A stretch of DNA of 64,000 nucleotides from Marsupella aquatica (lineage: Eukaryota; Plantae; Marchantiophyta): assembly GCA_973895155.1 (NCBI GenBank), contig OZ316893.1:15840645-15904644 (forward strand), read 5' to 3'. Position 1 is the first letter of the stretch; each line of letters begins with the position of its first letter. Shown piece after piece: positions 881 to 59,084 of the stretch. The notes under the pieces were generated by a model, which ran no database searches, was not told the DNA's origin, and saw only the letters and a program-made list of their open reading frames with translations. A program made the translations under genes and the position numbers.

Positions 881-2546
881 ATTTACAAAAGGCAGTAAAT
901 AGCAAACATCGAACTATATGTTCAGGACTGGTAACAGCAAAATTTCCTGTTATGGGTGCACATTTCTCCTGGTATTGTGGCAAAATTTCCAAAAACCGTT
1001 CCCAAAATACTGATACTTCTGCGATGCCGAATACTAGCGCTGGACGGTTATAGGCAAAACAAACACAAACGCATCATGCCAAATACTAGCGCCGGGCGTT
1101 CAAACCCTAAATAATGAAACATCAATCGCCCAAACATGCCGAATACTAGGGTTGGGCGCTGCTTTGTGAAGCAAATCACGAGAACGTAGGAGTGATGTTC
1201 AGGCTAAGATCCAACTAGAAACCAAACATTTCCAACAGTCTAAGTTCAATATCAAAGTACAAAAGCAGGACTTAACCAAGGTATCTGAGTCAGAACTTGA
1301 AACGGGAAATTGAAAGAAAAGAAACCCGATATTTTTTCTTCAAATCAAACATATTGTCCTCGATGTACAAATATTGCTACAGGGAAACTCTAAAGTTTCA
1401 GACAGAATAGAGAGCATAACAAGAGAATTCCTTGTAACCATAAAATTGTAACTAGCGCCAGGCGCTAATACTCCTGGTGGGTGCTTCCTCGTACCATGTC
1501 CTAGCTCGAAGAGTGACAATCATTGTCAATCCCAGCGTCCTGACAATCTGGATCTTGGCGGAAACCATGTAATCAGAAGTTGACATATGCTCTCGTGGGC
1601 CGTCAATGCACTGGTCTCCGAAAACCGACTTCTAGGAGATTTGTATCTTGAAAGTTGTCACGTCGTCAGCCTAGGCCTTAACTCGGGCTTCGGCTTAGAC
1701 AGGCACATCCGTTGTCAATATGAGGGTTCGGGCAGGGAGGGAGGCACGGAATGCACCTAAATCACATAAACTAGCGCTAAGTGCACCTATTGTCATATAC
1801 AGACACCTCTTAGGTATGGTTTGTGTTCCGCCGCCGGAACATACCTCAGTCGATAGCAGGATCAACCCCGACTTACGGGCTTCTAAGCCTTTGTGTTGTC
1901 CGCCTTTGATCCGGATTCGATGGTATGGGTACTAAACCCGGGCTCGCAACCACTTACCCGCAAGCTGCACCCCATGCATGACTTGGGTAGTGCGTTTGGC
2001 CAAGCGTTGGCACCTATACACGAGATTCACACATATACATACGCACAAGCATACAATCTCGATTTACACGAAGGAAATAGTGGGAAAGGATTTTACTACA
2101 TAGGAGACATATGCATACACTTAGTTGACCCGAAAGCCCTGGAACGAACAGGTCCGAGGCCAAGGGTGTACACTACAACGGAGCCCGGCTCCGCACTTGC
2201 CCAGCGAGCTTAGTCCTACACCCTCCCCTTGGTACTCTTTCACTCCCAGAGGTCGGGACTCCCCGCACATACCGCGGATGTCCAACATTGAGACTAAAAA
2301 CCCCTGCCTCTATCGAGGGGTGCACTAAATACTAAGGGCCGAGGAACGGAGTGCCCTCGTGCCCGAAGATTTGCTAACTAAGGTCCTAACTAAGCTGGCT
2401 GTCAGGCCGGAAAATGGCTTGTCTTATTAGAAGATCCTAATCTACGCAGGTTGTACAGCATGGCAGTGCTGCTTTAACTAGGGCAGGTGCTTGTCCCTAT
2501 AGCCTAATTTAGCTATTCCTAACTCTACTCTAATCCTACTCCGCCG

Positions 2547-5030
2547 CTAATGCCTGGCATGCTTGCCAGAGCCGCTTGAGTGGGAGCGGCTATCCCGCTG
2601 CCTTCTGAGCCTGTCGGCGTCCTGCTTGAGTAGCTGGACCTGGTCCAGCAGAGATTCGTTTTCCCGCTTCGCCGCGTCTGCCTCTTCCGCGGCCTCCTGG
2701 CATGCCTCCTCTAGTTGCTGGGTGTCGCTCGTCAGCTTGTCCACCAACTGGGCCTACTTTGTGACTTCTCCTTGAAGCCACGCCACCTCTGCCTTCAGGG
2801 TGTCAATCTCGGCTGTATCCCGTTGAGACCTGGAGTCAGCTTCCTCCAGATCTTTTTGCCAACTGACGGCTTGCCCCTACAAACCATCAATCTTGGTTCG
2901 GAGCTGCGTGATCTTGGTGTCCTTTCCAAGCCCGACCTGTATTGCTAACGCGGCTTGGGCTCTAGCCTCGGCGACCTGGTCCTCCGTGGCCGTTACCTGA
3001 GGCCGTAGTTGCTGGAGTTCAGCCTCCAAGGTTGCCACTTTGTCCTTTAGGTAGGCAGACTCAACCCGATATCGCTCTATTCTCTGCGCGGTCTCTACCT
3101 GCGCATGTCCTGCCCTTACTACCGCAACCAACTCCTTGTTGAAGAAGTAGGCCACCCTCCGGGCCATGTATTCCCCGGTGTCCCGAGAGATCTGTTGCGA
3201 GAAATCTCCCAACAACCCGTTCAAAAATGTGCCTGGCGCAAAGAGTTCCGGATGGTCTAGACTGTGTCCTTCTGGATTCGGGCACGGGCAGACTCCAACC
3301 CGTGCGGGAGTAGGAGTGGACACATCCAACCCTTGAGGTAAGTCGGTCAAAGGAGCTGGTCCCACTGGAGGTGGATGGTTCTCCTGCACAACCACGGGGG
3401 GTGGAGGAATCTCCCTGGCTACCATGGCATCTGCTTTGGGTACGGCTTCACCCGACCTGGCTTCGATGGCATTGTCCCGATTGATTGCGTCTAAGGTCGC
3501 AATAACATCAATGGGTATGCTTGGCGGGGCGGCAGCGGCGGGTTGCAGGGCCAGGGTAGCAGGACTTGCAGCTGCCAGACTTTGGGCCTTGGGCTGCAGT
3601 CACCTTACCTGGGCTGGGAACACCCATTTTGGCGGGGTCAGCTTGGGCTCGTTGAGACGCGGGAGGCTCGGGCGGTCAAAACGAGCATACCACTTGAGGA
3701 TGATTTTGACGTGGCTAGCGAAGTACGCCCTTCCGCCAAGGTACAAAGTCTTCCTTCTCCGCTCCATCTCCTCGTGGAACTTCTTGACGAAGAAGGACGC
3801 CCACTTCCTGGGCCGATAGTTCTCCACCTGGATGACCTGAGCGGCCGATATTTCTCCTCTGGGTTCCATCATGTGGAGGGCATACCGCTGGAACTCTAGG
3901 CGTTCTGCTACCTTCGGGATGAGGCACATCCTCATTAAGAACCCATTGTCCACTACCCCCTCGGCCGGGAAGCTAGATGACTGGTATTTAGCTCCCTTGC
4001 CCCCAGGAGCCCGCGACTCTACCCGGTTTATCCCCTCGGGTAAGCCAAAAATCATCTTCAGACGTGCCTCATCGAGACACATCACTCTCCCGTGCGCTCG
4101 GGTTTGTTGGCAGGCCTCGTCGAAGTTCTCAATGAACTCCGTCATATCCTGCCCGTAATACCTGCTTCCGTTCCAAGGGAGAGAGGCGAGGTGCTCAAAC
4201 CCCTGGGTCTTCAGATAGCATGCATGCTTGGGGTGGAAAATGTTCTTGTGAACGTTGTCCCCCATGCGATGCATGGTCAGCTTGGCTACCGTGGCCAAAG
4301 GCAACCCGGATACGGCTGCGGGCTCCTTCCTCTTCCTACCCCAAGACTGATTACCGGGGTGACTAGAAGAAGGGGACATCTCTCCTTCCTCTCGGTCAGG
4401 TGGTGGTAGCGCGACTGCCGTGAGTATTGGTGCCGGGGCCGCTAGCGTTACCGTGTTATCCCCTCGGGCTTGCTGGAGTGGTGCTGGGTTGTTCGTACCC
4501 CGTGGTTGTCGATTCAGAGGAGGGTGAGCCTCCTCATCTTTGGAGCTAATATTTACCGCATTCACCACAGATCATACTCGGAGAGGTGGTGGAACCGGTG
4601 GCGGGGACCGGCTTGGCTGAGGCCGAGGAGGTGTAGGTGCGGGTACGAGCACGGGTTGGCCGGCACTGGTCGTTGATGGTAAAGTTGCCATGAAGTTCTA
4701 CAGGTGCCGGTGGAGGTTTTTTGATGCAAGTGAAGATGGTCCTGTCGACCAGGTAGTGTTGAACTTGCCGTTGATGATAGCCCGGACCCGAGCGGGGATG
4801 TGGTCGAAGTGGTGCCGCTGCAAGTCAATCATGTCCGGAATATTGAAGACCTCGTCTGGAAGCCGAAGCAATGCCTCCCAGAATCCGATGTATTTGCCTC
4901 CGTCGAAGAAGTACCCTGATACCTCTTCGGGTCTGTAAAGCTCGCTCTGGGATGGGTACTCAAAGTTAAGGAGATAGTGGTGACGGCCTGCTAGGCGGAT
5001 GGCTCTCTCGTATTTGCATTCGATCTCATA
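2547..5030 (-). pseudogene. PMD (plant mobile domain)-like plus coiled-coil protein, about 830 codons, broken by TGA/TAG stops
   Basis: ORFs 3600-4568, 2877-3425 and 2547-2747 plus upstream sequence are in one frame, separated by single stops. The core GFEHLASLPW..TEFIENFDE..TRAHGRVMCLDEARLKMIFGLPEG is homologous to 49361-50410. The C-terminus is heptad-rich. Confidence 0.6.
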
Positions 5031-5625
5031 TCAGCGCGGGTTGGCATGTTTCAATGAGTCGGCCAAGTGCCCTCCGATAGAGAGGAACTGAGTCCAGAAT
5101 CGTATGGCCGAACTGGAAAGGATTGTGTGCGACATTCAGAGGAGATAGCAAGTGACTAAGGAAAAGCGAGAGAGCTGGGATCGAAGCCGGCGCATGGACT
5201 GGAGAGCTGGCGTACTGCAAAGGATCGGCCCCCCTTTTATACCCTGAGAGCTTGTCAATCGCCCGATGCCTCCTCGTCGCTTATAGGCCGAGCCTTTCAC
5301 GCTCGCAGTGTACCGGCCCCTTTGCCAGTCCAGGTCAGCTCGTGTCAGTGGCCGCCTCCCGGAGTTTGTTATACGGACCCGAGGGAGGGGGAAAAGGGCC
5401 CATTACACACTCGCAACCCAGGTGTGCGAATGGCGACACGCCGCCAGCCCGATCATGAATTCTCCTTATTGACTAATGATTTCCTACTCATAATGGCTAC
5501 CTAAATACTGTCGTTATGCTAATAATAACGGCCTAAGATACCCCTAATGCGTGTGCTAAGCATGGTTAGACCGAATTACTCATTACCCGTCATACCGACG
5601 GCGTCACAAAAGTCGACGCGCCCGT

Positions 5626-7089
5626 AGTGGTGGACCTTGCCACCCAGCGCCCTCACCAATCCCAGCACTCATGCCTAAGTGCCCCTGGTGCCCGAACGCC
5701 TCCATGGAATACCTCGAGCAAGCACCCTAGTACCTCTTGCACCACCAGCGGCCCCATACAAAGCCGCCTTGCTCACCCACATGACCGCTACTCAACGGCC
5801 TCCTTGTCTGCACAAGCAACCAAGCACCTTGGTAAGTAACCCTCCAGGATCTAGAACTTGCCAAGTCTAGCATCCTAACTCAAGCTCAATAGACGTTGGT
5901 AAATAGGTCAGTGATAGGTCCTCCCGATGCCATAAGCCGTAACCAAAACCCACGCCCACTGTCTGTCCAAAACAACTCCTTCCTTGGGCACGGCCCGGGT
6001 TCCCCCTCGTACCTATCCATCACCAACTGACCTCCCTTACCTCAGGACATGCTCATGGCCCAAATAGCGTAGCTTGTACTAAAGCTTGTCCCAAACTTGT
6101 CCCAACACGCCGGGACCAACTCCCGGTTCGCTCCACTGATGGTCTAGGGGCCAGACACTCTTGGGACTCAACCTCCACACCTACTTGGCCTTGCCTCCCC
6201 AGCGCAAGCTCCCTTGGGAGACTGAACGCGACTTGGCTGCCGTTCGGCAGGATTTGGCAAGCGGGCCAGTTAACACCCGCAAACCCCGAGAATCCAAGGT
6301 ACCCCCAGACCCAGCTGAGCTCAGGAGAGCGTAGCCCTTCTTGAGAGCTTTCCAACGCATCCAAGAAGTCTTCCAACGGACTTCCCGTTAGGAAGATATC
6401 GCCATTTCCGTTTGGCGGTTTCCCTTAGTGTCGCGACCGCCACGGCGCACGACTTCGGCTCGCCTTGGCCCCCAAGGAGACACCACTCCCCTCATGTATG
6501 CTTCTGGAGACCTGCCACCCCCGGACCAGCTTTGGTACCTAAACATTTGACCCCCAACCCAGATCCTATTGCGCATAATGGGCACGCCACCAACTGACAA
6601 CGCCCATAACTTTCTCGTTAGGCATCCGCAAGCGGAGTGCCTTAGCCCGTTATGATCGGGCCGACCCAGTGCTCATGCCTAGGCCCTCAGGTCTCATCGC
6701 CGCTCAGGGCCCCCGACCGGCCCAACCCGGATCAGGCCGTAACTTGCGCCCCAAGCGTCCGTTGCCCCTGGTGTCAACTCCATTGGCCTTGGGCCCAAGA
6801 GGAGCTCACACTCAAGCCCTTAGAACTCAAAGTCCCTCCGGAGGTCCGGACGGCCATCCTTGAGTCTGGCCCATTTCCCCTTGACCCGACTAGCTATCAG
6901 CTAGTCCAAGTCCTTAGTGTGTATCCCCAGCTTGGCTCCTTGCCTCGCTAGTGCCACGTCTCATTGCCCACAAGTCTCCCCATGCTAAGTCCTCCCCGGA
7001 TGGCCTATCCGGGCCTGGAACATAAGGGAGCTCGGCGTCGGAGTCAGCAACGCCGGAGCTAAGTGTTAAGGTAGTCAAGTTCCACGACT
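5626..7089 (-). mobile_element. Solo LTR (1464 bp) of the chromovirus family at 12970-46143
   Basis: It is the reverse complement of the LTRs at 12970 and 44651. Termini are AGT...ACT and the 5-bp TSD CCCGT lies at 5621-5625 and 7090-7094. Confidence 0.95.
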
Positions 7090-7261
7090 CCCGTACATCT
7101 CCTGAAGTCGACCATGGAGAGGCGGTGGCACTTGCATGGGTTTGGGCAGGTGAACAGAAAACCTCTCCATAAACGGTGGCGATGGAACATCACGCTGCCA
7201 AGGTATGTTCCTCTCCCCGGGACTGATACCTTCATCCGGCGGAAGATGGAGGCGATTGACA

Positions 7262-7503
7262 AAGTCTGTGGTTTCTATCTCAACAGATTCAGTCCTTGTC
7301 TAGAAAGAAGTAAAGTGAGTCAAAATGGGAACAACGGGATCTCCTTCAATAACCCTATCTGCGCCAATCTCCATTCCCATATCTCTAACAATACCAGAAT
7401 TATTAAGATCCGTATGCGGCCCTACATTGGAACTTTGAAAATGGCCTTCCATGGAATCGAGAAGGGAAAAATGAGAGCACTGGACTTTGAAAGAAACAAC
7501 CAT
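7262..7503 (-). pseudogene. Decayed unknown ORF of the MULE region; continues at 1651 to about 1468 once the insertion is removed
   Basis: ORF 7300-7503 reads through a TAG and across the insertion junction in frame, with further TGA/TAG stops. No domain was recognised. Confidence 0.35.
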
Positions 7504-7972
7504 TGTGCGGAACTGAAATGTTTTGATATCCTTGAGATAACAGTATGTTTATAAGGCACTTGGATTTCCCGTTATTGGTCCTCTTGTCGGTACCAGTCGC
7601 CGACTGAAAGCCAAATGACCATTGGGCAAAAGCGACAAAATTAAAATGGAAACTTCCAACGTATTTTTATGAGGGGGTACATTTTTGGGGAGCGTCGGGC
7701 GCTAGTTAAACAAAGGAGAGGAACCCACACAAAGGACGTTACGAAAGACCCCATTACCAGGTTTGACAAACCCATTACCAATTGAATGGAAGTGACAATC
7801 TCCCTCAAACTCAATTCCAATTTAATAAATTCAATAGCGTCAGGCGCTAACAAAAACCAAGGGCATACGCGTACAGTTGAGAGGCAGTTTGACCTAATAG
7901 AGGAAAAAATTGCTACCCTTCAGTGTCAGATTTTGAGCTATCATTCTGGGAGCTATGAGATCTGTCGGTCGA

Positions 7973-10900
7973 TTATGCCTCATCATCAATATACTTGCTT
8001 CTAGAAACATCATCTACGTAGGGGTTCCTTGTGAACTTCCTGTCTACTCCCCTAAGAAGCCTAAGTCCTTTTGTTTCCCAGCAAAGTGTCCTAAATTTCT
8101 CTGCCTTCCTTGCGATATGCTCAGCGTATGATGGCAACACAAACGGCTTCTTGAGAGTGATGATTACATTTCAAGCCACTTTCCTCCGGAGTTGAAACCA
8201 TTTTCTTTGGTTCCATTCTGACCTACTCAAAAGAGAAACGGGAGATAAAGAGGAAGTAAGTACTTAGCCGATAGAACCGATGGAATTAAAGGTTAACCAA
8301 CAATTGAAAGGATTAAGGAGCTTAAGAGAGATGAAAATTACTTGGAAGACTCTTCACTATCCTCCGTTGACCCCTCATGTCGACTTTCCTCTTTCCCACC
8401 GTCATTGACATCCTCAGGAACATCATCTTCTAGCGTACCATCATCTTTGTCCGAATCAAAGTTGAGGACAGATCTAAGTCTATCTTTCTTTTTTGGTCCA
8501 GTTATTTGAGGAGGGGGAGGTTGTGTCTCCAAAGGTTTAGGAGAAATGAGGTCCAAAAAAATCCTCAAAGCGGTCTCAACAAACTCCCGACAATTTTCTA
8601 ACCCGATGACAAAATGGCCTGAGTAATCCCCAACAATGAACGTACTACTTGAGCCGATAGTCCAATCAATTACAATATCCTTAGGTATCATAAAGAGTTC
8701 AAGGATAGTTTGCATAAAACCAACCGGTAGTCGGGCATTCCCAGTAAAATGTAGTTCAGGACAATAATCTTCCTTCAAAGCTTGTAGCTCAATAAGGTTT
8801 GAGATTGAAGGATCTTTGACGCTAGACAACGGCTTGAACCTTGGATCCTTTGGGACCTTTCCTTTCAAAGAAACTCGACAAAATATATTCAGTCTAAGAG
8901 TGAAGACCTGCAAAAGTTGACAAACCAACTGGATTTTAAAAATCTCTTAGTCATCAGAGAAGAACTCCAAAAGAAAAAATAGCGTCGGGCGCTAGTATAG
9001 CTAGACTCAGAGAAAACATTTACCTGGACGTCTGTCTTGGATCTATACATTGGGACAGACATGAAAACATTGTGCGTATTGATGCACATGAACTTCTTGG
9101 ATTGCTGACATGCAGAAATGACCTGGGAAATCTAATCGTGGTCTCCGAGTATAAGATAGCAAGCATGCCATCATTCAAAAGGAAAGGATCCATCGCTCGG
9201 AAAAATGATTTGGCTGCTGTGTGATCTGTTACATTCTATTTCGGGACCCGACGATCAACAATTGTGGGTTTCAATCTAGTTGGGAGATAGATGAAGCCCG
9301 CATTCACCCCAAATGATTGTTCCTTCCCACCTCTAATGACTCCTTTATCTCTACACCCCGACTTGATCAAATCCTTACCCCACTTCTCAGCATCTGCAAC
9401 CCAATCTGGCTTCTCTTCCTTACTAAATGCACTATCTATGAATTCTGCCAAGCTTGATTCGACCATACAGTGTCTTTCGACTTTGCTCTTGAAATTCCCC
9501 ACATCCCATTGCAGACCAGCCCCAGAAGCATTATCTCGTGACGATTCCCAGGCATCGATGGTCCTTTTCTTCTTCTTCTTTGTGCTTGTGGCATCCACAG
9601 GAACTATAACCTTCCCCTTCTCAACTAGGGTGATGGGGTCTGGATTGGCACCAGTGTTGGCCTCAGAGATTTCTGGTGTTGCATCTATTTTTGTATCATC
9701 CGTGGCACCATCAGATTTTCACCCACCTACCAAAGCACATTGTCAAACACATAAAGAGTGTTAGCGCCAGGCGCTGGCCAAACACCCACATTAATATCAG
9801 AAAATAAAACATATTAAACTCATGACACATAATAGCGCCAGGCGCTACCAAAGAAGGAAGTCGGAAGAAGGAGGTGTAGCATACATTTTTTCCCAGTCTT
9901 GGCACTAGCACTTGCTACAGGGGCATCCGCCTTGGCTTTGGATCTTGGCTTTTAGCTTCAATCAACATGAACCATAGTGGTTTTGCATTTTTTTTGCAAC
10001 TCAGTTGTCGACGCGTTGACGTCTCCCTCAATTCCTTGCTTCATATCGGAGACAAATTTCAGAGGAACTTGGGATTTTGACAGTTTATGGAAAGCGTCCT
10101 TCTCAATGTCATCAAATGGAGAATCCCATCTGTTGGTGTCAAGATACTAGGGGCAATGAATTCTCTCCCACTTTGACAATTTCCTTGGCGGAAGGATTCC
10201 CTCAGCGGGATACATGGAATACAGTTTGGCCAAAAGGTCTCCATCTGTGCAGATGACCCAATTCTGGAAAGCAGCTGGGTAAGCCCAAAAATAATCAAGC
10301 TTCACAATCTCCATGTGCATGAAGAAACGATAGACATATCGTTTCGCTCGCTTTTGATTCTTGAGTGTGTCGTCTTCCTTGTTCGGGTACTTGGACATCC
10401 ACATGGTATTGAAAAACTTACCTTTCACTGCATCCCCAAATTTCTTGAAATCGTTACACACTATTTCAACGAGTGAGTCATAAGACTCACACTTCCATTC
10501 CTCCAATCGTTGGAAGGAATTATTTCACTGATCTGTTGGAGGGCAGTCTGTAGCATACCAATGGCAATTCCCTCCACGCTATTCCAAGTTTGCCATGTGT
10601 GGCACCACTGCTTCACAGGGTCATTGCTAATGCTTTGCTTTGTGGATGAAAGAACTGTTTCCTGAGCTCTGGCGTGCAATGCGCTACTAACAAAGTGCTT
10701 CTCAATTTGGGGTCGAGGGCGGAGACTGCAATGAATAACCTGGCACGATCCATGGTACAGACAACCGCATCCGGTTTCTTCTCATGTTTGTTCACCTCTG
10801 TCATCGGGTACATCTCAGCGCAAGTTGTCATGATCAGAAGTCTTCAAACTCTAGACTCAACAAGGGAGATCTTTGAGACCTTGATCGCCCAATCCTTCAT

Positions 10901-12082
10901 TGCTTCTTTCATCATGACCGCACGTCATTTGGACGTCTCTTCTTGAGACCAAGGATTTCCCTGAGCGGTAGCCAACTCCAGGTCCATCTTGAATTGACGA
11001 GAATAGGATTTAATCTTATTCTCGCATAAGATATACAAAAGTGCTTCTTGAGGCATTTTCTTAGTATACCACGATCCCTTTTGAGTCTTCTGCATCACTT
11101 GCACAAACTTCTTGAAGTTTGCCCCATCAATGATTGGATTATAGTATTCTAGATCGTTGGACAAAATCCTTTTAATTCTGTCAGCATCAAGTATCCAGGA
11201 AGGTTCCACCACGGCCTGTCCAAGTCGATAGAAGAATTTATCAGTCAATAGTGCCAGGCGCTAGTAAAAAAGCATACTATGAACGAAAGACATTGAAATT
11301 CGAAGAGAGACTTACTGGTTCACAGTATGCATAGCCGCCTCAATCTCAATCAAAGATTCCTTTTCACCCTTGAAAATAGTACATTGCACACGCAGGTGAT
11401 ACTTGATATCATCGGGATTTTCTTTCGTAATGATCTACCATGCGTAAAGTTGATGGTTACCATCAAAAACATAAAACATCTTATCCTGTAAGACCCTGAA
11501 GTCTAGATCGGCCGCACATTCAGTTTTAAACTTCTCATTCTCTGCCATCCGTGACATCCGGTCCCAGGTTGCTCATATTTCCGGAGTACATGTCTGGACA
11601 TTCCCATTCGAATCTGCCGGCTGGACATAAAAAAGCATTCCAATTTTTGAGTTATATCCTGTGCTCCGAAAAGAGTCCTTCAACTTTTCAATTGAAGGAC
11701 TTCCCTTTTGTAAGGTGCGGAAAACTTCCATGTGAACCAAGCAACACATTGGAATCCTTGGCGGGTCTTTGTCGTGCCCTCGGAAATCCTTGCCAAACAA
11801 CATAACGTGTTTGGAGATAACGTCGGACATTGTGAGCGACATTTCTCCTCGATCTTCCATAGCATATGTGTCGAGATCGTCCATCTTCGCTCTCCTACTC
11901 TTTGGAAATGTGACAACCGCGATTGTTTCAGGAGCTTGGGATGCTGTAAACCGTGTCACATGATGACTGTAAACAGATCCAGAAAACAAGCACTCGGACG
12001 TTTGGGAATGGATCTGCTCTCTCTGCCCGTTAGCACTATACCATGGATGCGAGGTGGTGGGGAGAGGGTCCATGTTTTGCAT
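7973..12082 (-). pseudogene. Multi-exon ParB/Srx-like N-terminal domain fused to a beta-class-like amino (N4C/N6A) DNA methyltransferase domain
   Basis: The N-terminus reads IPMCCLVHMEVFRTL..IEKLKDSFRSTGY..FYV..KMFYVFDGNHQLYAW (11438-11479; the ParB GNHR motif with CGA>CAA). The C-terminus reads RLPVGFMQTILELFMIPKDIVIDWTIGSSSTFIVGDYSGHFVIGLENCREF (about 8580-8735), resembling KP..L...I......GD.VLDPF.GSGTT......GR..IG.E. A degenerate motif-IV-like GFIYLPTRL..VPK(W)N followed by PFLLNDGMLAILY lies near 9150-9300. Candidate GT-AG introns are 11315-11216, about 9023-8908 and about 8341-8223. There are several stops and frameshifts. Confidence 0.7.
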
Positions 12083-12969
12083 ACCCCAAGTTCTTCACGA
12101 TCGTGATGAGTATCTCATTCATACCGTACTTCTTCTAGAGAATTCTTGCACGAATAACCTCTGAAACGGAACCTAAATACAGCAGACAAGGAAGGTGGAG
12201 AGAGTATCCTCTCTAAACTATCCTCTCGCTACATTGATATCTATCTAGGACATTCTCTTGAAAGCCACTTGTCAACTCCGGATTAGTTGTTGGAATACCG
12301 TTGGCATATCTTCAACGTTACGCAAACCTAAAGTTACCGTTGAATATGACCGTTAAATAAATAATGCGATCAATTTCATCTATATTCTTTAGGTGAAATC
12401 TCATATTGGTCAATAGTAATGCCTGGCGCTACCAAAAACTCTCAATATTGAAACCCTAATTTTTCCATAAGTTAAACAAATTTGACTCTGAAGTATAAAA
12501 TAAAAAACAAAATGAATACATATTTTTGAATATTTGTCCTTAAATGAATGTCATGATTGCCGATTCAGATTAGCGCTCGGCGCTAATATAAAATCTCCCC
12601 ATTTTTGGCAATATTTTAGAATATTTGTAAAATAGCTACAAACATTTAGGATTTATTCTGAAATCCTAGATATTAGCGCTTGGCGCTAAATATAAAATAT
12701 ACCAGTTTTAGGCCACAATTTAGGGTGTAGGTTTTAGTAGCGCCTGGCGCTAAACATATATTTCACCATTTTAAGTCCAAATTGGAGTGTGTATGTTTTA
12801 GTAGCGCCAGGCGCTACTCAATTATGGTGATTTTATAAACATGATTATGTTGTTTGGAAAAGGACATCTTAGGCTCATTAGTGTAAATGTCATTGACATA
12901 ACAACAATAACATTTATTGTGTCAGATGTGCTTTCACCCGGAAGTGATTCTGTCGTATTCTAACGGCTC

Positions 12970-14443
12970 AGTTGCGGAACTCGACTACCTTAACACTTAG
13001 CTCCAGCGTCGCTGACTCCGACGCCGAGTTCCCTTATGGTCCAGGCCCGGATAGGCCATCCGGGGAGGACTTAGCATGGGGAGACTTGTGGGCAATGAGA
13101 CGTGGCACTGGCGAGGCAAGGGGCCAAGCTGGGGACACACACTAAGGACTTGGACTAGCCTATGGCTGGTCGGGTCAAGGGGAAATGGGCCAGGCTCAAG
13201 GATGGTCGTCCGCACCATCGGATGAACTTTGAGTTATGAGGGCTTGGGAGTGAGCTCCTCTTGGGCCCAAGGCCAATGGAGTTGACGCCATTGGCAACGG
13301 ACGCTTGGGGCGCAAGTTGTGGCTCAATCCGGGTTGGGCCGGTCGGGGGCCCCAAGCGGCGATCAGACCTGAGGGCCTAGGCATGAGCACTGGGTTGGCC
13401 CAGTCACAACGGGCTAAGGCACTCCGCTTGCGGATGCCTATCAAGAAAGTTATGGGCGTTGCCAGTTGGTGGCGCGCCCATTATGCGCGATGGGATCCGG
13501 GTTGGGGGCCAAATGTTTAGGGACCAAAGCTGGTCCGGGGGTGGCAGGTCTCCAGAAGCATATATGAGGGGAGTGGTGTCTCCCTGGGGGCTAAGGGCGA
13601 GCCGAAGTCGTGAGCCGCGGCCGTCGCGATACTAAGGGAAACCGCCAAACGGAAATGGTGGTATCTTCCCAACGGGAAGTCCGTTGGAGGACTTCTTGGG
13701 TTCGTTGGAAATCTCTTGAGAAGGGCTACGCCCTCCTGAGCTGAGATGGGTCCGGGGGTGCCATGGGTTTTTGTGGTTTGCGGGTGTTAGCTCGCCCGCT
13801 TGCCAAATCCTGTCGAACAGTAGCCAAGCCGCGTTCAGTCTCCCAAGGGAGCTTTCATTGGGGAGACAAGGCCAAGTAGGTATAGAGGCTGAGTCCCAAG
13901 GGTGCTCGGTCCCTAGACCATCAGTGGGGCGAACCGGGAGCGGTTGCTAGAGTTGGGGCCATTCTGGTCCCGACGTGTTGGGACAAGCTTTAGGACAAGC
14001 TACACTAATTGGGCCATGAGCATGTCCTGAGGTCAGGGCGGTCAGTTGGTGATGGATAGGTACGAGGGAGAACCCGAGCCGCGCCCAAGAAAGGAGTTGT
14101 CCTGGACGGACAGTGGGCGTGGGCTCTGGTTTCGGCTTATGGCATTGGGAGGACCTATCGCTGACCTATTTACCAATTTCTGTTGAGCTTGAGTTAGGAT
14201 GCTAGACTTGGCGAGTTCTAGATCCGAAGGGGTTACATACCGAGGTGCTTGGTTGCTTGTGCAGACAGTGAGGACCGTTGAGTAGCGGTCGTGTAGGTGA
14301 GCAAGTGCGGCTTCATATGGGAGGGGCCGCAGGTGGTGCTAGAGGCACTTGGATGCTTGCTCGAGGTATTCCGTGGAGGCGTTCGGGCACTTAGGCATGA
14401 GTGCTCGGATTGGTGAGGGTGCTGGGTGGCAAGGTCCACCACT
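12970..14443 (+). repeat. 5' LTR (1474 bp), AGT...ACT
   Basis: Direct repeat of 44651-46143 with scattered transitions and small indels. Confidence 0.95.
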
Positions 14444-14445
14444 TG

Positions 14446-22280: not shown

Positions 22281-22623
22281 TCAAACAATTGTGTTGGGCT
22301 TGGTGGCCTTGTAAGTCTTCTTTAGCTTTCGCAATGGAGGTTGAATCTTGCAGTACGTCAAGGGGAACTTGATCTTTGAATCATGGAACTGCTTGGTACT
22401 TTCTCGCTTGCACAGAGAGACAGGGACTGTCGTAGTCTTCATGATCTGGATGCAAGGGAACCGAACTCTATGACAAGAAGCCATCTCATCATACATCTGC
22501 TCTGCAGCTCCGTTTCTTGTGGTATCACAATATTCCTTGTACATGTTGTGATAACCTGTACGACTCTGATACGTGGACCCAGATACCGAAGTTCTTAATT
22601 GTGGTGGGCTTCTTTTTGAAGAT
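22281..22623 (-). pseudogene. RPL18A: Captured last-exon fragment of 60S ribosomal protein L18a (eL20)
   Basis: It reads [17 protein letters not shown], then after a +1 frameshift [43 protein letters not shown]...[17 protein letters not shown]...KTYKATKPN. It begins right after a CAG acceptor. Confidence 0.93.
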
Positions 22624-24696: not shown

Positions 24697-24840
24697 AAAT
24701 GCCTTTGTACCTTAAATGCTAAATATATTTTACTTTCTGTGCAGTCTGCTAAATTGTAGAGTCTATCTAAATGCCTTTGTACCTTAAATGCTAAATATAT
24801 ATTACTTTCTGTGTAGTCTGCTAAATTGTAGAGTCTATCT
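24697..24840. repeat. 72-bp tandem duplication just upstream of the PHD ORF
   Basis: AAATGCCTTTGTACCTTAAATGCT... starts at 24697 and 24769; the copies are near-identical. Confidence 0.9.
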
Positions 24841-24851
24841 CATGCGCAGGC

Positions 24852-41720: not shown

Positions 41721-41757
41721 TTGCGGTCTCAGTTCACCTCAGATTCTTCTAGTGTAA

Positions 41758-46143: not shown

Positions 46144-47219
46144 GGCTCTGACAAACGGATTATTCACTATGAATACCATTGTATACGTTCGAAAATGTCA
46201 TTCAGTCATTACCTACACTTCTTCCTATCTTCATATCTCACGGCTTAAGAAATGCCCCCTCCATCTAGCACCAAAAATGTGGTGCATCCCATGGCTCCCC
46301 AAACCCAAGAAACCCCCCTGCGTAGGTCGATTCCCGCAGGTTTCGTCCTTGGCGAGGCCGTTTCCGTGGCTTAGCGACATGGGACGCTGCTAACTTCCTT
46401 CTACTACTACTATTAACATTTTACACACATATACTGGACAGATCCTTCATCGGGTCATGAGATACGTAGCCGGCCTAATCTAGGCCTTCCCTTGTATTCC
46501 CCTCCTTCTCTTTAGGTATATTTGGATTCCGCCGCCGGAATGATCCCCAATTGGCTTGGTTAAGCCGCTAAGACCTCTCTCAGCTGGACACATCCAACTC
46601 TCACTCCCTTACTTACTTCCCTTCATCTATTAGTTGATGTGGGCACTCTTCACACAAGTTAATGCGACACACAAATAGCAAAATGACTCCTTTTGACTGA
46701 GTTATACCATGCACTTGCCATACAAACAGTACATCTCATACACAAGTTCTGCGAACTAAGCCGTGAGGCCAACTCTATTTAGCTCTTAGGCATGAGGAAA
46801 CATGAATATACACAAGGGTCACTGTATAACTAACCGAGAGCTTCTCTTACTACTTGATCCCAGCCCTGCTGGTGCAACTAAAAACTTGCTAAAGAAGAGG
46901 CCTTGGACTCCCCGCTGCCCAGGTACTTATCCTGGTAGTGGATCCGCCAATTCTTAGCAGCGTAAGCTTAATCTATCCTACCTATAATCTACCTAACTGC
47001 AATCTACCTATGTACAGTGAGGTAGGAGTACAAGTGTTGCTCCTACCCGTGGGTCCGCAATCCCACTAATCTAAGTGTCAGGGCCGTCTCCTGGTCCTGA
47101 TCCTCAGCCTAAACTTGGAGATCTGAGCCCGCCCTGCCCACTCACGCCTCCTACCTCCACGTCCGCCCTTCCTAAAAGGAACAGTGCCCTTGCACCGTCA
47201 CGACACCGGTGGTGGATCC

Positions 47220-50410: not shown

Positions 50411-50973
50411 GAACTCGGCCTTGATGAATTCTCCTCCTAAGAAGGCAGATTTTTGCAGCTCCCACAGTCGAGCTAGCTCCTGCCGTTCTCAAGCTGCTCT
50501 CTCCGATTCTTCGTCCTCGTAAGTCCCAATGTACACAGTTGCCCGTTTGAACAGGCATCCCCAAAAATGTGCCACTTGATTGACGTTGCTCATACCCTCC
50601 TTGAGTTGTTCGTTGGTATCTGCTCCCGCCCAGAGTGTTTGTCTAAGCAGCTGACAGTAGTTGGCCTCCCGTAGTCATCTGCCCAGTTCGTGCTTGCAAA
50701 TGAGCCACCATTCCTCACGAGCTGTCCTTACCCCTCTCCTCCTCTGGTCTTTCCTACCGTTGGTTACCCCTAGCCGCCGACACTTAGTGCGACCTAACCC
50801 TAATCGTATTCTCTCCCCCGGCGTCCTTACTTCCGGCCTTGGCCCGGGTTCCATAGTCACCCTTAATTGTTTATATTTTCCTCATTCTTGTAACTATACT
50901 AAGGTGTTTCTAGGGTACACTTCCATTTTCCCACTTAACCGGCCTAGTGATTCCTCGTTAGGCATCACACATT

Positions 50974-53900
50974 CAAAAACCAGTAGCATCCGATCTCCCA
51001 TCTTCATCCAAACCCTTTGTTGATGTTGTCTTGCTTTCAGATAGCAACGATGATGGACCTTCTGGTTTGCCTGAGTCTAGTCCTAAACCCCCTCACATAG
51101 TTGTTAAACAGGAGGTTACCATTGTTTTTCCCAAAAATTCCATTGTGTATCGAATAAGTGCAATGGATACCATTCTCAAGTCAACTGGTTCTAGTGAAAT
51201 CTCAAGGTTCATCGCGGTTGGGGACTTTTGCCATGAGCAAGTCGACTATTTGCCAAAGAAATACAATGGAAATATTGTATTCAAGTTGCCTCTTGCGACG
51301 GGAGCTCTTTCGAAGGGGTCACGCCTACACAACATGGACCGGTCAAAGGATTGCTACATCTAAACCAAAATATTTCCTACATCAGCTAATGTCCATCCCA
51401 AGAAATATTGGGAATTTGGTAAAGTAACGTGCACTGGTTTCATTGAGTGTAGGAATAATACTTGCGACTATTTTTGACGGAAGAAAAGGAGGAACCAAAA
51501 GGCCTGGGCTGGAACCCCCAAACTGGGCGGGCAACATCGTGTTGGTTTTTTCATTGACAAAGGTGGAGTAGTTTGCCACCTTTGTGATCAAGTTCCGTTT
51601 TGTGTGGAATCCTGTCCAACATGTTTATTTTACATGTACCCTCAGGTTCTAGTTGACTCAAAAACCATTACTCATATGTCACGCTTGGCAATTCATATGG
51701 GGATCCACAACCATCCTTCAAGAAAGGTGTTTTCTAGGAGCCCAGAGAAGATTGTTGAGGAGGTTATCAAAAAGAAATTGGAAGGAAATCCAATTTTCAC
51801 CCCGGCTGGTGTAAAAAATGTTGCGATAGGGTCCTTTGTAAAGTCCTTGTGTGAAAGTATGGAAGATATTCAAGATATTGAAGAAACAGAGATATTTCAA
51901 TCGCTCAAGGTAGTTTCCACACCCTAGAAATTTGCGTCCCTTTTTTGTAGTGTTAGACAGGACCTGAAAGGTCGAGGTGAACTAGATTTTCTTGTTCGGT
52001 ATCAAAGAAATATCAACATGCCTTTCCTCCAAAGGTACCTCCTACCAGGTCAAGGATCTCAAGGAGACCGTCCTCACATATTCAAGATGACTTCGATCGG
52101 CCATGGATCAGGCGTCAATCTTTTGAGACAAATGCAACCTGGTGGGAGTCTGGAAGGTGTTTGGGTAAGTTTTGATGTGATGAAACGACTCACAAAAGAC
52201 TGGGTTACTTTTAGTGCGCATATCTACGATCACAACTATTGCACTCTGTGTACCTTATTCACCTGCAAACTAAAAGCAGAGGATACCGAGTCATTCGAGA
52301 AGGCTTCCAGGAGACTAATGATTGAGGTGTCCAAGGAGAATGGATTAGAAAATCCGATCATTCATGGATTCATGACGGACAATGCTCAAGCTGGATGGCT
52401 GGCAATCCAAAATGTCTTTTTTGGAGGGCATCCAAACCCAGAGCATGAGCAAACTGACGCATTCCATTTCTACCAAGCCTTCCATCACCATTCAGTTGAA
52501 AGAGTCATTGAAGAGAGTCAAGCAGAGCATCGCAGGCTTTGGGATAAGATGCAAAATGCCCCCACGTTTGTAGAGGCTTACAGACTTTCAAGGGAGATTG
52601 ATTTGTGGTGGCAATTGGATAACTGTGTCCCCGAGAAGCTCCGGATGCTTTAGAGTTGGATTTCATGGTGGGTCGTCAGGTGAAGACAATGGGGAAATTT
52701 TATTCGTTTGGTAAGTTGTTTTATTTTCCTTTCCGTTCTTTAAGTATTGCTCTGCTATATTCTCATTACAAAATGATTATATCGATAGTGTAAACTTCAA
52801 ATATTACAATACCATATAGCATCCTTTAATACTAGCGCTTGGCGCTATTATTTATTCGAATTGTCAGATGACACAATAGGACACAATAAGTTGTCCCTTA
52901 ATCTACATTGCCAGTTTTTACTTCTAGGTACCGACTCCACTTCTCTAGCGCCTGACACTAGTGTTTTCTTGTTGCGTAACAGACAATTTATTCTATGTAA
53001 TTGCAGAACAAGAGTGTCAAAGAAGGGGCTAAGATTCCTAATTTTACAGGATCAGAGTCCGTGCACGCAGGTATGAAAGCATGGGTAATGAAGAAAAAGG
53101 TTGGGCTCTTTGAGGCATATGAAATGGACCAAAATTGAGCTATTTCTCAGGTTGCTGCTTACACTACGTATCGGAAAGGGTTGAATAGAGGAAAAGGTCC
53201 AACGATTTGGGAATTGGCTTTCCGATCAGCGGACCAGGCAGGCTCCCCCAAGTTGTTTGAAGATGCAATGAATATATGCTATTGTCCAACGCTGTCGAGT
53301 TTGACTTGGAGAGATGGGCACCTCTCAATGGAGACGTTGTCACCAAATCTTTGAAGAGGAAAGGACATGCATCTGGGAATATCTCGCCACAAGACTCCCA
53401 TAGGCATGATAAAATCCTTGTCACCTCGCCAAATACTAGATCAATGAAAAGGAAGAATCTTAATCGCACGACGTTTGATGCTATCCCTGGCCCCACGCCT
53501 CAAGTTATTCCTGTTGTTAATCTGTTTGGAAGTGACATTTCGGGCGGTGGAGAAGATGTTGAATTCAATACCCCTCCTGCTCGAGACCAAACGCGTTCAA
53601 CAAGGCTTCCCCAGACTGCTCCCTCAATGCTTCAGCAACCGTTACAAGAGTGTCCTATCTGCGAGACCGAGGTTGCTCCAGCTGCATGGCAATTACGTCA
53701 AACCTCAAAATTTGGCGTTGGTCCTCAGTGCAACGGATCATTTTCCCATAATTCTGAAAGAGACGAGTGTCGCAATCGTGTGAAAAAAGTAGGATTTCCC
53801 TCACCAAATGGTGTTATCGGCATTGTTGTCAAAGGACAACGCATTTTCAGGGGGGAACCCATAACCGAAATGATTTGGTTTTGCCCAAACAATACATGTT

Positions 53901-54535
53901 ACAGAAGCCGCCCGCGTCGAGGTGTATTGAACCTGCCCCCTTTCCCTGATGTTCTTCCCGTTTTAAAAGGCACAAATGTTTTGAAAGACGAGATGCATTA
54001 TCTTCTTGAGAACGGAATCTCCCTAGTCCATGGAAATGAACGTACTACTGGACTCCCGTCAGATTTTGATCTTCAAATCAATGTCAATATCTTTCCAAAA
54101 AATGTGAATCTTCTCGAACCCAATGTTTGTCTCCGAAGCCGGAATGGGAGGAATACGGTTCCTCGGTCAACTCTTACCCAGGGTCACATGAACAGAATTG
54201 CGTCTGCAACAAAAGAGACGATGTCCATTCAGGGAGAGTGGGATGTCACGATTGGGAATGCATGGGGAAAGCAATTTAAGGTGCAAACGCACAAAAATAC
54301 GTGGACGCCAAATTGTTATTTTGTTCTAATTTGCATTTTCCCAACTTGCTCTTGTGAGGATTTCTACCGGCGACATTCTCGGAAACATCCATATATGCCT
54401 TGTAAACATTTGTATTGGATTTTCCTTACCGTTTTCAAACTAGATGTTGAGGAATCTACATTGACCAGCCAACCAATTCTCATTGTTGGAGAGGTTCGGC
54501 TCATATTAGAGAGGCAAAATGCTCATGGTTTATAG
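50974..54535 (+). pseudogene. MULE-family transposase paralogue B (GCM-like zinc domain, DDE core, SWIM finger)
   Basis: Motifs: CTGFIECRNNTC..CHLC..CP..HMGIHNHP; WVSFDVMKR (D1); FMTDNAQA (D2); AFHF; after the intron 52711-53006, SESVHAGMK (E); and the SWIM finger PTCSCEDF..PCKHLYWIF. There are several stops. Confidence 0.85.
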
Positions 54536-55134
54536 TTTGAATCATGATGATCTAGGTTGTCCTATTGGTCCAAATGGTTATATTGATTTTGTCATATGTC
54601 AACGGTATAGTGTTATGTATGTCGCGTCATGTTTTTGTTAGTGCTAGGCACTGATAATTTTGTCATTTAGGGTACACCATTAGTTATCATCATGTTGTGC
54701 TTGATTTGTCAACTCCAACAATTTGTTTCATTAAATACCGGTAAGCTAGCGCCAGGCGCTAGTCAAGATGTTGTTCGCTTTTATTTTGGACCATATAATA
54801 CGATAAAGTTTTGTGCTACGTTCATTTTGTTTTATTTTCATATATTTTGTTACCGATTGTGGTGGGACCTACCATTTTTGTGTGCATTCCTTGACATTTT
54901 TATGTATACACCCCTTCTCTATTTTGGGATATGAGAATCAATTATTATGTGGTTCAACGATTCATGACAAAATATCCTCCATACCCGCAATGGACTAATT
55001 CCAAATTTTACAATTCTAAACTCCTAATAGTGTGTTCTTTCCCCTGGTACAAGCTATTTTTTCCTGGTAACAGCATATTGGAAACAGGAAAAGTATTTCC
55101 TGTTTGCCTGTTTCCTGTCTCGGTCGCTATACCC

Positions 55135-55680
55135 ACTGACTGTATGAACGATGTCCCTTAAGTCTTTGATGAAAATGAAGTACTCGACGCCAAATTTGAG
55201 ATGCCAAAAGATTTCTTCGCTTCAGATCTGACACTCATAATATGTTTTCTCCTCATATCAAATCTTCCACATAGGTAATTCTCACTAATACGCTTGTACG
55301 TGTCGGAGAATCATCACAACATCACCCATTTTTGGACACGTTATTCAAATAATGCAAGACATTCTAGCTCCAGAGAGAGAACCTACTATTTTACCACATG
55401 AGATGTGGTAAAATAAATGGGGATTCAATCACTGTTTGAGTATTTAATATTAATCTATGTCCCAAACGTAAAGAGCCAACGAGAGGCTGAGCTACGTTAG
55501 CCAATGACAGTAGCGTCTCGCGCTATTATTAAAGTCTTCCATTTTCATTGATATTTGAGTCTATCATAATAATAAATAGCGTCAAGCGCTACTCTTGACT
55601 TGATATAAATTTCCCAGACTAACGGTCCCTTTTAACGGTTTCTTTGTCTATTCAACTATCAAATTTATGACCTTTTTGGG
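55135..55680. mobile_element. Remnant of a related motif-bearing element beyond the MULE right end
   Basis: Two palindrome variants (55511, 55577) lie in AT-rich DNA resembling 12300-12450. Confidence 0.4.
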
Positions 55681-57457
55681 AGAGGCTAAACGGAGCTTAG
55701 AGGAAAGGCGGAGCTAAGAGGCAAGGAGTAACTTTCGGCTAGGTGGAAGTGTTGGGCAGCTGGGCGGATTCATCTGGGTGGCTTGTTGCTGGTGGACAAT
55801 TTGCAGTTGCCGGTAGTAGAGCTGGTTCATGAGTGTTTTTATGAAGGATTTGGTTATCGGTGGTCTTAATTTGTGTTAGGGATGCAAGATAGCTAGGAGG
55901 CAATATCTACTATGTAGATGTGTTGCTGCATTTGTGGGGGATTGGCGCAAGGGGTGATGCTACGATTGGAGATAGTGGCTTGACGAGATTGAGAGGAGAC
56001 ATAACCGGAAGTAGATTCAGGACAAGGGACAAAGAAGAGCAAGTTCAGAGAGAGCAATGGATTTTTCTGATGCGGCACAGTGGATTGACACTGCAAGTGA
56101 AGAGGAGTCAAAGACGACACTAACAAGAGTTGAGCCTACACAATCAGGCTGAGAGCTTAATAGCATTCACCAAGAGATCCTATCTAGAAGCGGTACAAGA
56201 AATAAGCTAAAGAAAGAGTAGTAAACCAGATTAAGCTCAGGTTTGTTCTGCGCTAGACTGGTCCAAAGGTTGTCCATCCTCCCGAGTGGGTCCTAGATGT
56301 GTTATTTAGTCATTATGAGTAGCTCACAAGGGCTGTAACCACCTGATAAAGAAGGAGAGTCCGTCAAACGCAAGCAAGCCAGGTGAGCCCAATTCTCTTT
56401 TACCCCTTTTTGAGATAAAAAGACAGTCAAATTCAAGTAAGCATCATGGATTTAATTTGTTGGAGTCCAAGGGGGGAAAGAGTTATGGCTGAACAATATT
56501 ATGTTGATAGAGACAATCACGTGCCATAGGGAGTCTTAGAATTGTATAGCAGGCAGGATTCTCATAGCATGCCTTTTCGGGGAGGTGGCCGTTATGCGCA
56601 CACAAATTCCTATAGGCGTCCACCATTCATTCCGCAACGACCACGGTATGATATCTTTGAGCAGTCAAATTAGCCACTGGAAGCATTTGCAGTCAGGAGC
56701 ACGGATAGCAGGCAAGTCAAAATGAAGGGGGTTATAGAACTGATGTGAACAGGACACAACTTACCACAACCGGAGAAGAGTCTACAAGTAGTTGAATTGG
56801 CACCGGATTATGTACCAATAGCAAGAGCCCAGACCCCACCCATGGATTGTCCTCCAGAGAATATGCACGCCAGGACCTCTATCGGGAAGAATGCGGCATA
56901 TGGTCAAGGGATGGCAATGGAAGTAGTGATAGAAGATTGCATTAATTGGGGAGGTGTCAAAAGGGGAATGGAGTACGAAACTGTTTGCTACAATAGAATG
57001 GACATTGGAGGAAGCTGCTAGCAATGTCCAACAACTTTACAACTGTGCCATGCTCTGTTATTTTACCGATAGAGCTCCAATGCTGCCAGTGTTTTGAGCC
57101 TGGGTAGAAGAAATGATGGTTTACGGAAGGAATTGGCCTGTGCTGCAGGTGAGGTTTGTGGGAAAAAACTTCTACCTAATGGTCTTTGAAAATGCTGATC
57201 ATAGTGATTTAGCCCTTTTGGTGGCGCCTTGGTATGTGGAATGCAAACTAGTGTTCACCTTCCCGTGGGAACCATCCTTTGACATTTGAACGGAGAGATA
57301 TACAAAGTTACTGGTATGGATCGAGCTGCCCTTTTGAGCTCTATTATTAGAAGGATATCGGATCAAGGTTGCTAAATCATTGGGGAAATTACTTCACTAT
57401 ATTCAAGGGGATGAGTATAGCTCATATCCACATGATAGAGCATGATTGTATCCTATG

Positions 57458-57923
57458 TGTCGTGCGCATACACATCGCTACACAACATACATCGCTTGTC
57501 ACATACATCCAGACATAGTCACACTGCCACATCACAAACACAAGAGAATGGAATACAAGTGAAACTCATGTCCACACGTGTCCAAAACCCACTATAATCT
57601 CAATACAATTGGCACAATGATCCCAATCAACAATACCCATCAATCCCGCACCGATCTGATCACACACGTATGTCAAGCCAACACACCTTACACTACTCAA
57701 GGAATCCATGTTACACAAGCGGAGCTCACAGCCACCATAGCCACACTCAAGCTCCTCTCTCTCCAAGGCTCAACATTGAAAGATAACCTTTCAATGCCTC
57801 ACAAGAGAGAACTACCCTCTCACACAAACCTAACGGAACCTTATCAGCTCATATAGCACACATACCAAACATACAGATCTAGATAGTATGATACACTCTA
57901 ACACTACCTAGAATGGTGTAACA
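57458..57923. mobile_element. 466-bp solo LTR inserted in LINE ORF1
   Basis: Junctions are TATG|TGTCGTGC...GGTGTAACA|TATG, a 4-bp TSD. Removal rejoins CIL/WDTE. Confidence 0.75.
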
Positions 57924-58733
57924 TATGGGACACGGAGCAAGAAGTCCCTCTCAGTGCGCGTGTAATGATCTGTGAGGATATAATCATTTGGCAGCCAATA
58001 CAATTGAATAATATACCATTTCACTGTTTCAAGTGTAACAAGAAGGTTCATGTGGCCTGCAATTGTAGAGAAGGTATGGTTGAGGCTGCAGCCCTAGAGG
58101 TCGAGCCATCTGGTGATGAGGACGATGTGCTGTCCCCTGACAAAAAAGATGAAGAGGCAGAAGGCAATCCAGAAGAGGTTTTACAGACTCAATTGGCAAT
58201 GATTTTGCGTGCAAGGAATCAGGTTTGGCTCCCCTGGAGGAGGGGCTGGCGGCGGCGATGGATACCACCATGACAGTAGATGTCCAAGGACAAGCTAACA
58301 AGGAATCAATTCAAGGAGCGGAAGGCTCTGGCAAAGACAGACATCAAAGAAGGGATGAGTCAAATAGAGTGGATTCAGAGCTTAACCGCAAAGTAGTGTT
58401 GTCCAATCCCCTAGAAAGGAGAGAGGACCTGCCCTCCCCGCCCTCATTGCTAGTAGCAGCTGTACTGGATACAACTATGAATAGAGTGCAGGGATCCAAA
58501 AAGAATTCGTTGAAGACCACATCAGTGAGATCGGGCTCACCCTATAAGCGAGAAGATCCGAAGGCTTTCTCATATCATGGAGATTCAAAAGCAAATGTAG
58601 ATATGTCAGAATATGAAGCTTACGTGTCCAAAAAAGAAAAAGAAAGAGCTCATAAGATTGATAGCAAGACACCTCCACTTGCAAAGAAAGAAAGAGGAAT
58701 ACAAGAGGCCAAAAAGCAACGCTCACTCCAATT

Positions 58734-59084
58734 GAGGTGTTTACAAAAGACAGCAAAATAGGAAACAGGAGTTACTAACAAAAACTGGTAACAAGAAAAA
58801 AACTGGTAATAGGAAAATGGGTGGAAAATGTTTTTGAAATTTTTCTTTGAAATTTTTTTTTTGGTCGACCAGTGTTTTTTTCTAGCGCCCGACGCTGCTA
58901 ATAGTAGTGCCCAAAGCTAGCAAAAAATGTTGCATTGTTAATTTTGTTTGAAAATGACATGTTTTAGGAGACATTTTTAAATTGTCATTTTTCCTAGTAA
59001 TAGTGATTTTTTCCTAGTAACAACATATTAAAAACAGGAAAAAAAATTCTTGTTTACCTGTTTCCTATCTCCGTCGCTATACCC
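58734..59084 (+). mobile_element. 351-bp non-autonomous derivative of the motif-bearing MULE family
   Basis: The 8-bp TSD CTCCAATT lies at 58726-58733 and 59085-59092. The last ~80 bp match 55050-55134, and two palindrome variants are inside. Confidence 0.85.

Follow-up and report, generated by a model that had tools for sequence, protein, structure and literature searches.

We analysed a 64,000-nucleotide window of the genome of the liverwort Marsupella aquatica (contig OZ316893.1, positions 15,840,645 to 15,904,644), which contains a decayed Mutator-like element (MULE). The element is taken to extend from a left end at 876 to a right end at 55134, both of which were defined by comparison with the ends of a non-autonomous derivative of 351 bp, and it carries a transposase gene divergent from an accessory gene. 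A 15-bp palindrome, TAGCGCCWGGCGCTA, recurs in its non-coding DNA. This word may be the family-specific site at which the accessory protein of the element docks, and may serve a self-recognition against silencing similar to that of VANC on VANDAL elements, an explanation to which we give about an even chance. The confinement of the palindrome, its retention in unrelated flanks, its recurrence at the related locus L006 and its replacement by another palindrome at the locus L001 fit cis-acting sites for a protein of the element, as the first-pass annotation of this DNA had proposed; our candidate binder is the accessory protein.

The palindrome is real: with up to three mismatches it was found 19 times in the window, compared to a mean of 0.64 in shuffled sequences. 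Five copies are exact and 16 carry at most two mismatches (shuffled means of 0.00 and 0.06, respectively). Defining a copy by a free centre and at most two arm mismatches yields the identical 19 sites. About 22 copies had been annotated; 19 pass, while the half-sites at 1035, 1147 and 1772 do not. The word is also the sole palindrome of the 6-3-6 form that recurs in the window, with eight perfect copies, whereas every other arm type occurs once. When the half-sites were folded on the symmetry (n = 38), A2 and G5 were kept in all 38, C4 in 35, C7 in 33 and C6 in 31, and an A was present two bases outside the palindrome in 26. The centre is N (A in eight, T in six, G in three and C in two copies). 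C>T and G>A changes dominate the variants, as had been noticed before, with 16 of 21 arm mismatches. The commonest of them, C6>T (7 of 38 half-sites), looks like a tolerated variant, since it is too frequent for neutral methylation decay. Where the copy at 52946 has drifted, the consensus letter is present in contigs of the family.

The flanks of the palindromes have a median identity of 0.32 (253 pairs), compared to 0.30 for random non-coding pairs, and the highest-scoring flank pairs are tandem duplicates. Because the flanks are unrelated, it is the word itself that is conserved. Two other origins of the word were considered and rejected. An RNA hairpin on the transcript is not consistent with the copies at 8980 and 11249, whose transcribed strands contain A-C mismatches, and the latter does not fold; an Rfam search of the window gave no matches. 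A prokaryotic source was also rejected. The exact word was found in 52 viral loci, none of which resembles the element and in 51 of which it is single, and a paired-motif scan of bacterial genomes gave one match, which is a coding repeat. Being single or coding, these matches are attributed to chance.

With the borders of the compared segments set by ourselves, 17 palindromes lie in 3,683 bp of non-coding element DNA and none in 8,401 bp scored as coding; elsewhere in the window, two lie in a 566-bp low-copy relic past the right end and none in 50,985 bp of other DNA. The annotated specificity for the element holds for 17 copies, but not for those at 55511 and 55577, which are outside the right end. 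When only the 6,027 bp of homology-supported exons were considered and neighbouring copies were merged, all ten palindrome clusters avoided exons (P = 0.0013). Nine of ten non-coding segments contain a copy, the density peaks in the divergent intergenic region (five copies in 615 bp) and 14 of the 17 element copies lie more than 500 bp from either end. The five copies at 12417-12816, the intron copies at 11249, 8980, 9762, 9833, 52833 and 52946 and the copy in the 351-bp derivative were found where the first-pass annotation had placed them. All four palindrome-bearing introns have GT..AG ends, and homologues, with frames that stop or start at these places, support accessory introns 1 and 2 as well as the transposase intron. 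The palindromes and the genes of the element are the following.

1087-1101: palindrome with two arm mismatches, within a tandem unit of 52-60 bp
1453-1467: exact palindrome
7690-7849: two palindromes (7690, 7835), downstream of the accessory gene
8338-12310, minus strand: decayed accessory gene with stops, frameshifts and three introns; its 5' limit is approximate, with homology to 12040
8907-9023, minus strand: accessory intron 3 with one palindrome (8980); GT..AG, acceptor possibly one base off
9727-9884, minus strand: accessory intron 2 with two palindromes (9762, 9833); P0045 ends there, and family contigs have 147 other letters instead
11216-11315, minus strand: accessory intron 1 with one palindrome (11249); P0044 ends at its donor
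12311-12925: intergenic region between the divergent genes; five palindromes (12417, 12571, 12674, 12738, 12802), of which a 64-bp tandem unit contains the last three
50961-54535, plus strand: main part of the decayed Mutator-like transposase with DDE core, D-x-x-H and SWIM-like end
52711-53006, plus strand: transposase intron with two palindromes (52833, 52946); the intron position is the same in the loci L002, L003 and L004
54747-54761: exact palindrome, past the transposase stop and before the right end
55511-55591: two palindromes (55511, 55577) in the low-copy relic outside the right end
58734-59084, plus strand: 351-bp non-autonomous derivative with one palindrome (58883) and an 8-bp target-site duplication; itself multi-copy

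The accessory protein combines, in this order, a ParB/Srx-like N-terminal domain, a helical middle region and a beta-class methyltransferase-like C-terminus. A first search for long homologues found none. P0044 matches exon 1 at 62% and P0045 matches exon 2 at 50%, and a search with P0044 gave 232 clusters at 50% identity (E<=0.001); a few of the 150 clusters listed look spurious. Among 20 homologues, mostly the longest, 12 are from Riccia sorocarpa and seven from Adiantum. The family, which is unnamed, occurs in genomes of liverworts and ferns. Natural full-length members are present in Riccia sorocarpa, and one full-length member of the family is KAL3677308.1. A [DE]GNH motif is present in the N-terminal domain of 107 of 157 proteins. 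The ParB-like phage family phrog_1033 matches six of 40 homologues weakly (best E 0.0027), and DUF1015 and DndB, which we take to be kin to ParB, match two of 40 each. The motif and the phrog_1033 matches lend weak support to the ParB part of the ParB-methyltransferase label used in the first-pass annotation; the profile comparisons given below do not. A search with hmmsearch against ParB proteins was not significant, PDB sequence searches gave nothing significant, and no ParA was present among 25 window frames scanned. In the ESM Atlas, the named clusters nearest to the N-terminal domain are those of DUF3723 (score 0.95). The DUF3723 recognition score of 1981 is below the tool threshold of 2300 and Pfam DUF3723 was not matched, so that we treat this as a lead only. 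According to the accessible part of the source, DUF3723 is a conserved cargo of fungal Starships, which are giant mobile elements (PMC9156397).

When the accessory gene and 38-40 homologues were scanned with Pfam, N6_N4_Mtase, at the C-terminus, was the only consistent family. The match of the window gene (E 8.8e-6) falls narrowly below the cut-off, as do the matches to positions 162-221 of PF01555, which hold S-adenosylmethionine (SAM)-binding motif I (E 1e-5 to 5e-5). This motif is retained in the homologues, and one row of the Atlas carries PF01555. The catalytic [DNS]PP[YFW] motif (DPPY/SPPY) is lacking. Five of six homologues have D-[LMF]-P-[TSI]-G and the sixth has DVPF; P0133 retains an aromatic residue at the motif, and the window copy is also without its D. 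DPPY was observed in 13 of the 20 bacterial loci fetched for weak ParB matches. Because this motif is lacking and only 8 of the 19 palindromes keep CCWGG, the proposal that CCWGG is a methyltransferase target finds no support. Viral relatives of the accessory protein or the transposase were searched for and not found, nor was a phage match for the accessory N-terminal domain; phages and plasmids gave only weak methyltransferase matches. From the domain order and weak matches, rather than from a tree, we infer that the protein may be of bacterial or phage origin. The family member P0188 of Adiantum is fused to a NIF/FCP1-like phosphatase domain. SET and oxygenase domains were not matched in the accessory family.

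MULE transposases are recognized by a DDE core with C/D-x-x-H, and MULE target-site duplications are usually 9-11 bp long. In the window, D, D, D-x-x-H and E can be read in the frames and align with the intact transposases of L003 and L004. The SWIM match (E 0.03-0.04) is below the cut-off. The N-terminus has a Cys/His-rich region, which gave no Pfam match to the WRKY-GCM1 zinc finger. On the DDE core and the SWIM-like end we assign the element to the MULEs. The combination of DDE and SWIM agrees with the architecture of Mutator-like elements in the accessible part of PMC1702500.

Ten related loci were obtained when metagenomes were scanned with the transposase alignment. At L006, four copies of the window palindrome (0 in 300 simulations) lie behind a transposase piece that is 42% identical to that of the window, and the locus has no other DNA similarity to the window. 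Two of these palindromes have arms of 12-14 bp, and copies lie in a duplication. L001 carries a different, 17-bp palindrome, TCGGCGAG-N-CTCGCCGA, three times; two copies lie in a 360-bp duplication and the third, which has two mismatches, outside of it. In the window, a 17-bp word at 63123 differs from the L001 palindrome by two mismatches, and a 128-bp tandem unit contains similar words; the stretch 63123-63480 is possibly a relic of the other subfamily in this genome. Upstream of the intact transposase of L004, which belongs to a distant clade, a long array of a short AT-rich unit was observed (440-910).

The conservation of one word across many non-coding settings that are otherwise unrelated, together with its invariant positions, its two-fold symmetry and its replacement in the sister subfamily, suggests a site for a dimeric, family-specific protein. 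In the docking explanation that we favour, the accessory protein would bind the palindrome as a dimer, because of the two-fold symmetry of the word, and would mark the element as self. It is preferred to the transposase as the probable binder because the ends of the element carry other repeats. By analogy with VANC and with the anti-silencer VirB, docking would keep the element open or expressed despite CG and CHG methylation. For the methyltransferase-like domain, we predict a role as a binder or altered enzyme rather than as a standard writer of N4-methylcytosine (4mC) or N6-methyladenine (6mA).

Several results weigh against this explanation. Some palindromes arose by tandem duplication, and two introns have 34 nt in common around the palindrome, which fits the copying of a small unit. 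The presence of a palindrome in four of four introns is borderline once the non-coding placement is taken into account (P = 0.052). CpG decay in the palindromes (3 of 76 cytosines) does not differ from the rate in the long terminal repeats (LTRs) of the nested retrotransposon (P = 0.25), so that no protection is seen; the changes between the two LTRs are 13% for CG, 10% for CHG and 2% for CHH, a predominance of CG and CHG that, together with the homologues, suggests a seed-free land plant. Eight of the ten related loci carry neither palindrome. Seven of these eight belong to the distant clade, and L008 and L009 have little non-coding DNA. The accessory gene was found at none of the ten loci, of which only L003 (1.8 kb) and L004 (1.2 kb) extend upstream of the transposase; the link between palindrome and accessory gene is for this reason drawn from the window family. 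Pfam ParB_N did not match the accessory family. A comparison with 29 classic ParBs by hhalign gave a probability of 0.6%, which is not significant and lies below that of a ParA control (2.1%). No helix-turn-helix was identified, the middle region being without a usable model; two AlphaFold models were unusable (pLDDT 30.6 and 41.5) and the fold search was empty. Finally, the motifs of VANC are not palindromes.

Among the alternatives, the transposase itself could bind the palindromes as an oligomer and activate its own family or assemble the transposition complex. The AtMu1 transposase, in the accessible part of the source, binds motifs of its family and activates cognate copies (10.64898/2026.08.24.746577), the 351-bp derivative retains one palindrome, and the type of palindrome tracks the transposase subfamily in L001 and L006. 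However, AtMu1 binds terminal repeats, whereas most palindromes of the window lie far from the ends, which bear other repeats, and the distant clade has the transposase but no palindrome in its available non-coding DNA. We therefore consider a transposase site unlikely, though the least so of the alternatives. Next in probability, and also unlikely, is a self-amplifying hairpin that spreads by slippage or template switching, is tolerated only outside codons and is read by nothing. The 64-bp and 52-60-bp tandem units that contain the palindrome, the long-armed L006 copies in their duplication, the L001 copies in the 360-bp duplication and the absent CpG protection would all suit such a hairpin. 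On the other hand, the flanks of most copies are unrelated, the arms of the window copies neither extend nor co-vary, and four of seven folded window copies have a z above -2. The position-specific invariance and the identical word in L006 argue for a sequence-specific constraint instead.

The high density in the divergent promoter region would also be consistent with a word read by a host factor, acting in transcription or on chromatin, which the element has recruited. Yet the 51 kb of other mobile DNA in the window lack the palindrome, copies are present at the 3' end and in every intron, the sister subfamily has another palindrome and a 15-bp site is presumably long for a plant factor, which makes a host factor less probable again. 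Lower still we rank a parS-like system of land plants, which we regard as doubtful: parS sites are about 15-16 bp long, and a nucleotide-dependent ParB-type clamp of bacterial origin would load at the palindromes and spread, the methyltransferase-like domain would shield or re-mark the element against host silencing, and site and protein would co-diverge across liverwort and fern subfamilies. It is very improbable that the palindrome is the target of a methyltransferase of the element that marks its own DNA by 4mC or 6mA at or near CCWGG. The near-threshold N6_N4_Mtase match, the SAM-binding motif kept by the homologues and the aromatic residue of P0133 would allow such an activity, but CCWGG is missing from most copies, and five of six homologues have D-[LMF]-P-[TSI]-G where most of the bacterial loci have DPPY.

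Comparison of the window element with known systems was made on the accessible parts of the cited sources. The idea of ParB plus inverted repeats is already published for red-algal Plavaka transposons. In Bostrychia, a PF01555 gene and a ParB-like gene stand beside tandem inverted repeats, for which ParB-type binding was proposed, and homologues of PAG2/PAG3 occur on Mutator elements of Chondrus (10.1101/2025.02.11.637652). As in the PAG2/PAG3 case, the window presents a DNA transposon with an accessory PF01555 methylase, a weakly detected ParB-like domain and inverted repeats, a likeness drawn from the description of these proteins. In Plavaka, however, each of the two domains has its own gene, accompanied by SET and 2OG-oxygenase partners, the transposase is of the EnSpm type and the repeat array lies beside PAG3. 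The window element, by contrast, belongs to a land plant, has the two domains fused and a Mutator-like transposase, and carries single words dispersed through all of its introns. For VANDAL elements of Arabidopsis, binding and demethylation by VANC have been shown, with motifs in introns, intergenic and terminal DNA (PMC5735166). The window element is similar in being a multi-gene MULE with a family-specific short motif, some tandem multiplication and differences between subfamilies. The VANC motifs are 9 bp long and lie in one orientation at high density, whereas the window palindromes are mostly single and dispersed. The accessory protein has a bacterial-type architecture; the VANC family was unmatched in Pfam scans, with no direct alignment to VANC made. 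TnpA of Spm and the AtMu1 transposase are sequence-specific activators that read clusters of family motifs (10.64898/2026.08.24.746577). These motifs resemble the window palindrome in their family specificity, but are 8-10 bp long and concentrated at the termini.

VirB is a ParB-fold protein that acts as an anti-silencer (PMC10245682), and adenine methylases fused to ParB have been noted in chlorophytes and chytrids (PMC4738411). Similar to ParB-parS and to phage ParB-methyltransferase fusions, the window element combines a palindrome of about 15-16 bp with a ParB-like domain followed by a beta-class methyltransferase. Unlike bacterial ParB systems, it lacks ParA and DPPY, its domains are separated by about 650 additional residues, and the hhalign result for ParB was not significant. 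MpDN4MT1 and the bdelloid N4CMT are eukaryotic 4mC writers (10.1101/2021.02.12.428880, PMC8885841) and, like the accessory protein, bacterial-type beta-class amino-methyltransferases in a eukaryote. Both are host genes, N4CMT having a catalytic SPPY, whereas the window family, compared here by description, is transposon-borne and without SPPY. Neither the exact palindrome word nor a Mutator element of land plants that combines a fused methyltransferase-like domain with one dispersed word per intron was found in the literature searched, whose coverage did not extend to subscription journals. If the sites are indeed read by the element's protein, seed-free plants would have a transposon self-recognition made of bacterial parts and independent of VANC and TnpA. 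This would provide a second, tractable case for the proposal made for Plavaka, and also a programmable 15-bp address on chromatin that might be useful for work on plant epigenomes. A direct test is feasible because of the full-length natural members of the accessory family in Riccia sorocarpa.

The genes of the element are split by an LTR retrotransposon (12970-46143) and a second insert. The ends and the remaining features are listed here.

1-875, minus strand: paralogous transposase relic, truncated by the left end at 876; without palindrome
876-1030, plus strand: left end of the family copy with subterminal AAACAGG/GGTAACAG-type repeats; 35 nt are 83% identical to the derivative's left end
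7973-8200, minus strand: small coding relic like the C-terminal tail of P0065, judged by eye; no motif
12970-46143, plus strand: nested LTR retrotransposon with further nested elements and the target duplication GGCTC; without palindrome
55033-55134: right end with 80-83% identity to the right end of the derivative; contig depth drops, and one contig departs from the window sequence at 55134

The ends are only loosely inverted, and an 8-bp duplication is present on the derivative and none on the large copy. Since no target-site duplication joining 876 to 55134 was found, we only infer that both ends belong to one copy. The subterminal repeats differ from the palindrome. The outer 12 bases differ between 876-910 and 55100-55134, in the large copy and the derivative alike, and the right end contains TAGCGAC, which is one base off a palindrome half-site. 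Depth was taken from four public runs whose contigs match the unique flanking DNA with no differences, so that the runs come from this organism or a very close one. Each run gave 711-1,930 contigs on 7100-12965 and 1,583-4,001 on 50900-59300. The summed contig depth, which is no copy number, is far above that of the unique flank and drops at the right end. The element family is plainly multi-copy. Contig joints that rejoin beside palindromes (7712-7820, 52717-52829, 54534-54744 and 58799-58875) are suggestive, and were not counted as evidence because most have fewer than 30 letters on one side.

Further observations concern neighbouring and nested DNA. The stretch 7090-7450 is multi-copy in the family and has a long, broken minus-strand frame to which none of the fetched proteins is homologous; it may be a third gene. 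At 57458-57923, a unit of some 465 bp reaches more than 2,000 times the unique-flank depth, with joints going back 462 bases, and is a very high-copy or tandem small element. Related LTRs at 5626-7089, 12970-14443 and 44651-46143 start with AGT and end with ACT, not TG..CA, and have 5-bp target duplications. Nested in the LTR retrotransposon, a CACTA-type element (24825-31160) carries PHD-finger and BRCT frames upstream of a Tnp2 transposase. A frame like ribosomal protein L18a was found on the minus strand at 22281-22649, inside the nested DNA. The minus-strand frames at 1480-2000 may resemble ribosomal protein uL16/L10, and 30 nt of this stretch match 46512-46540.

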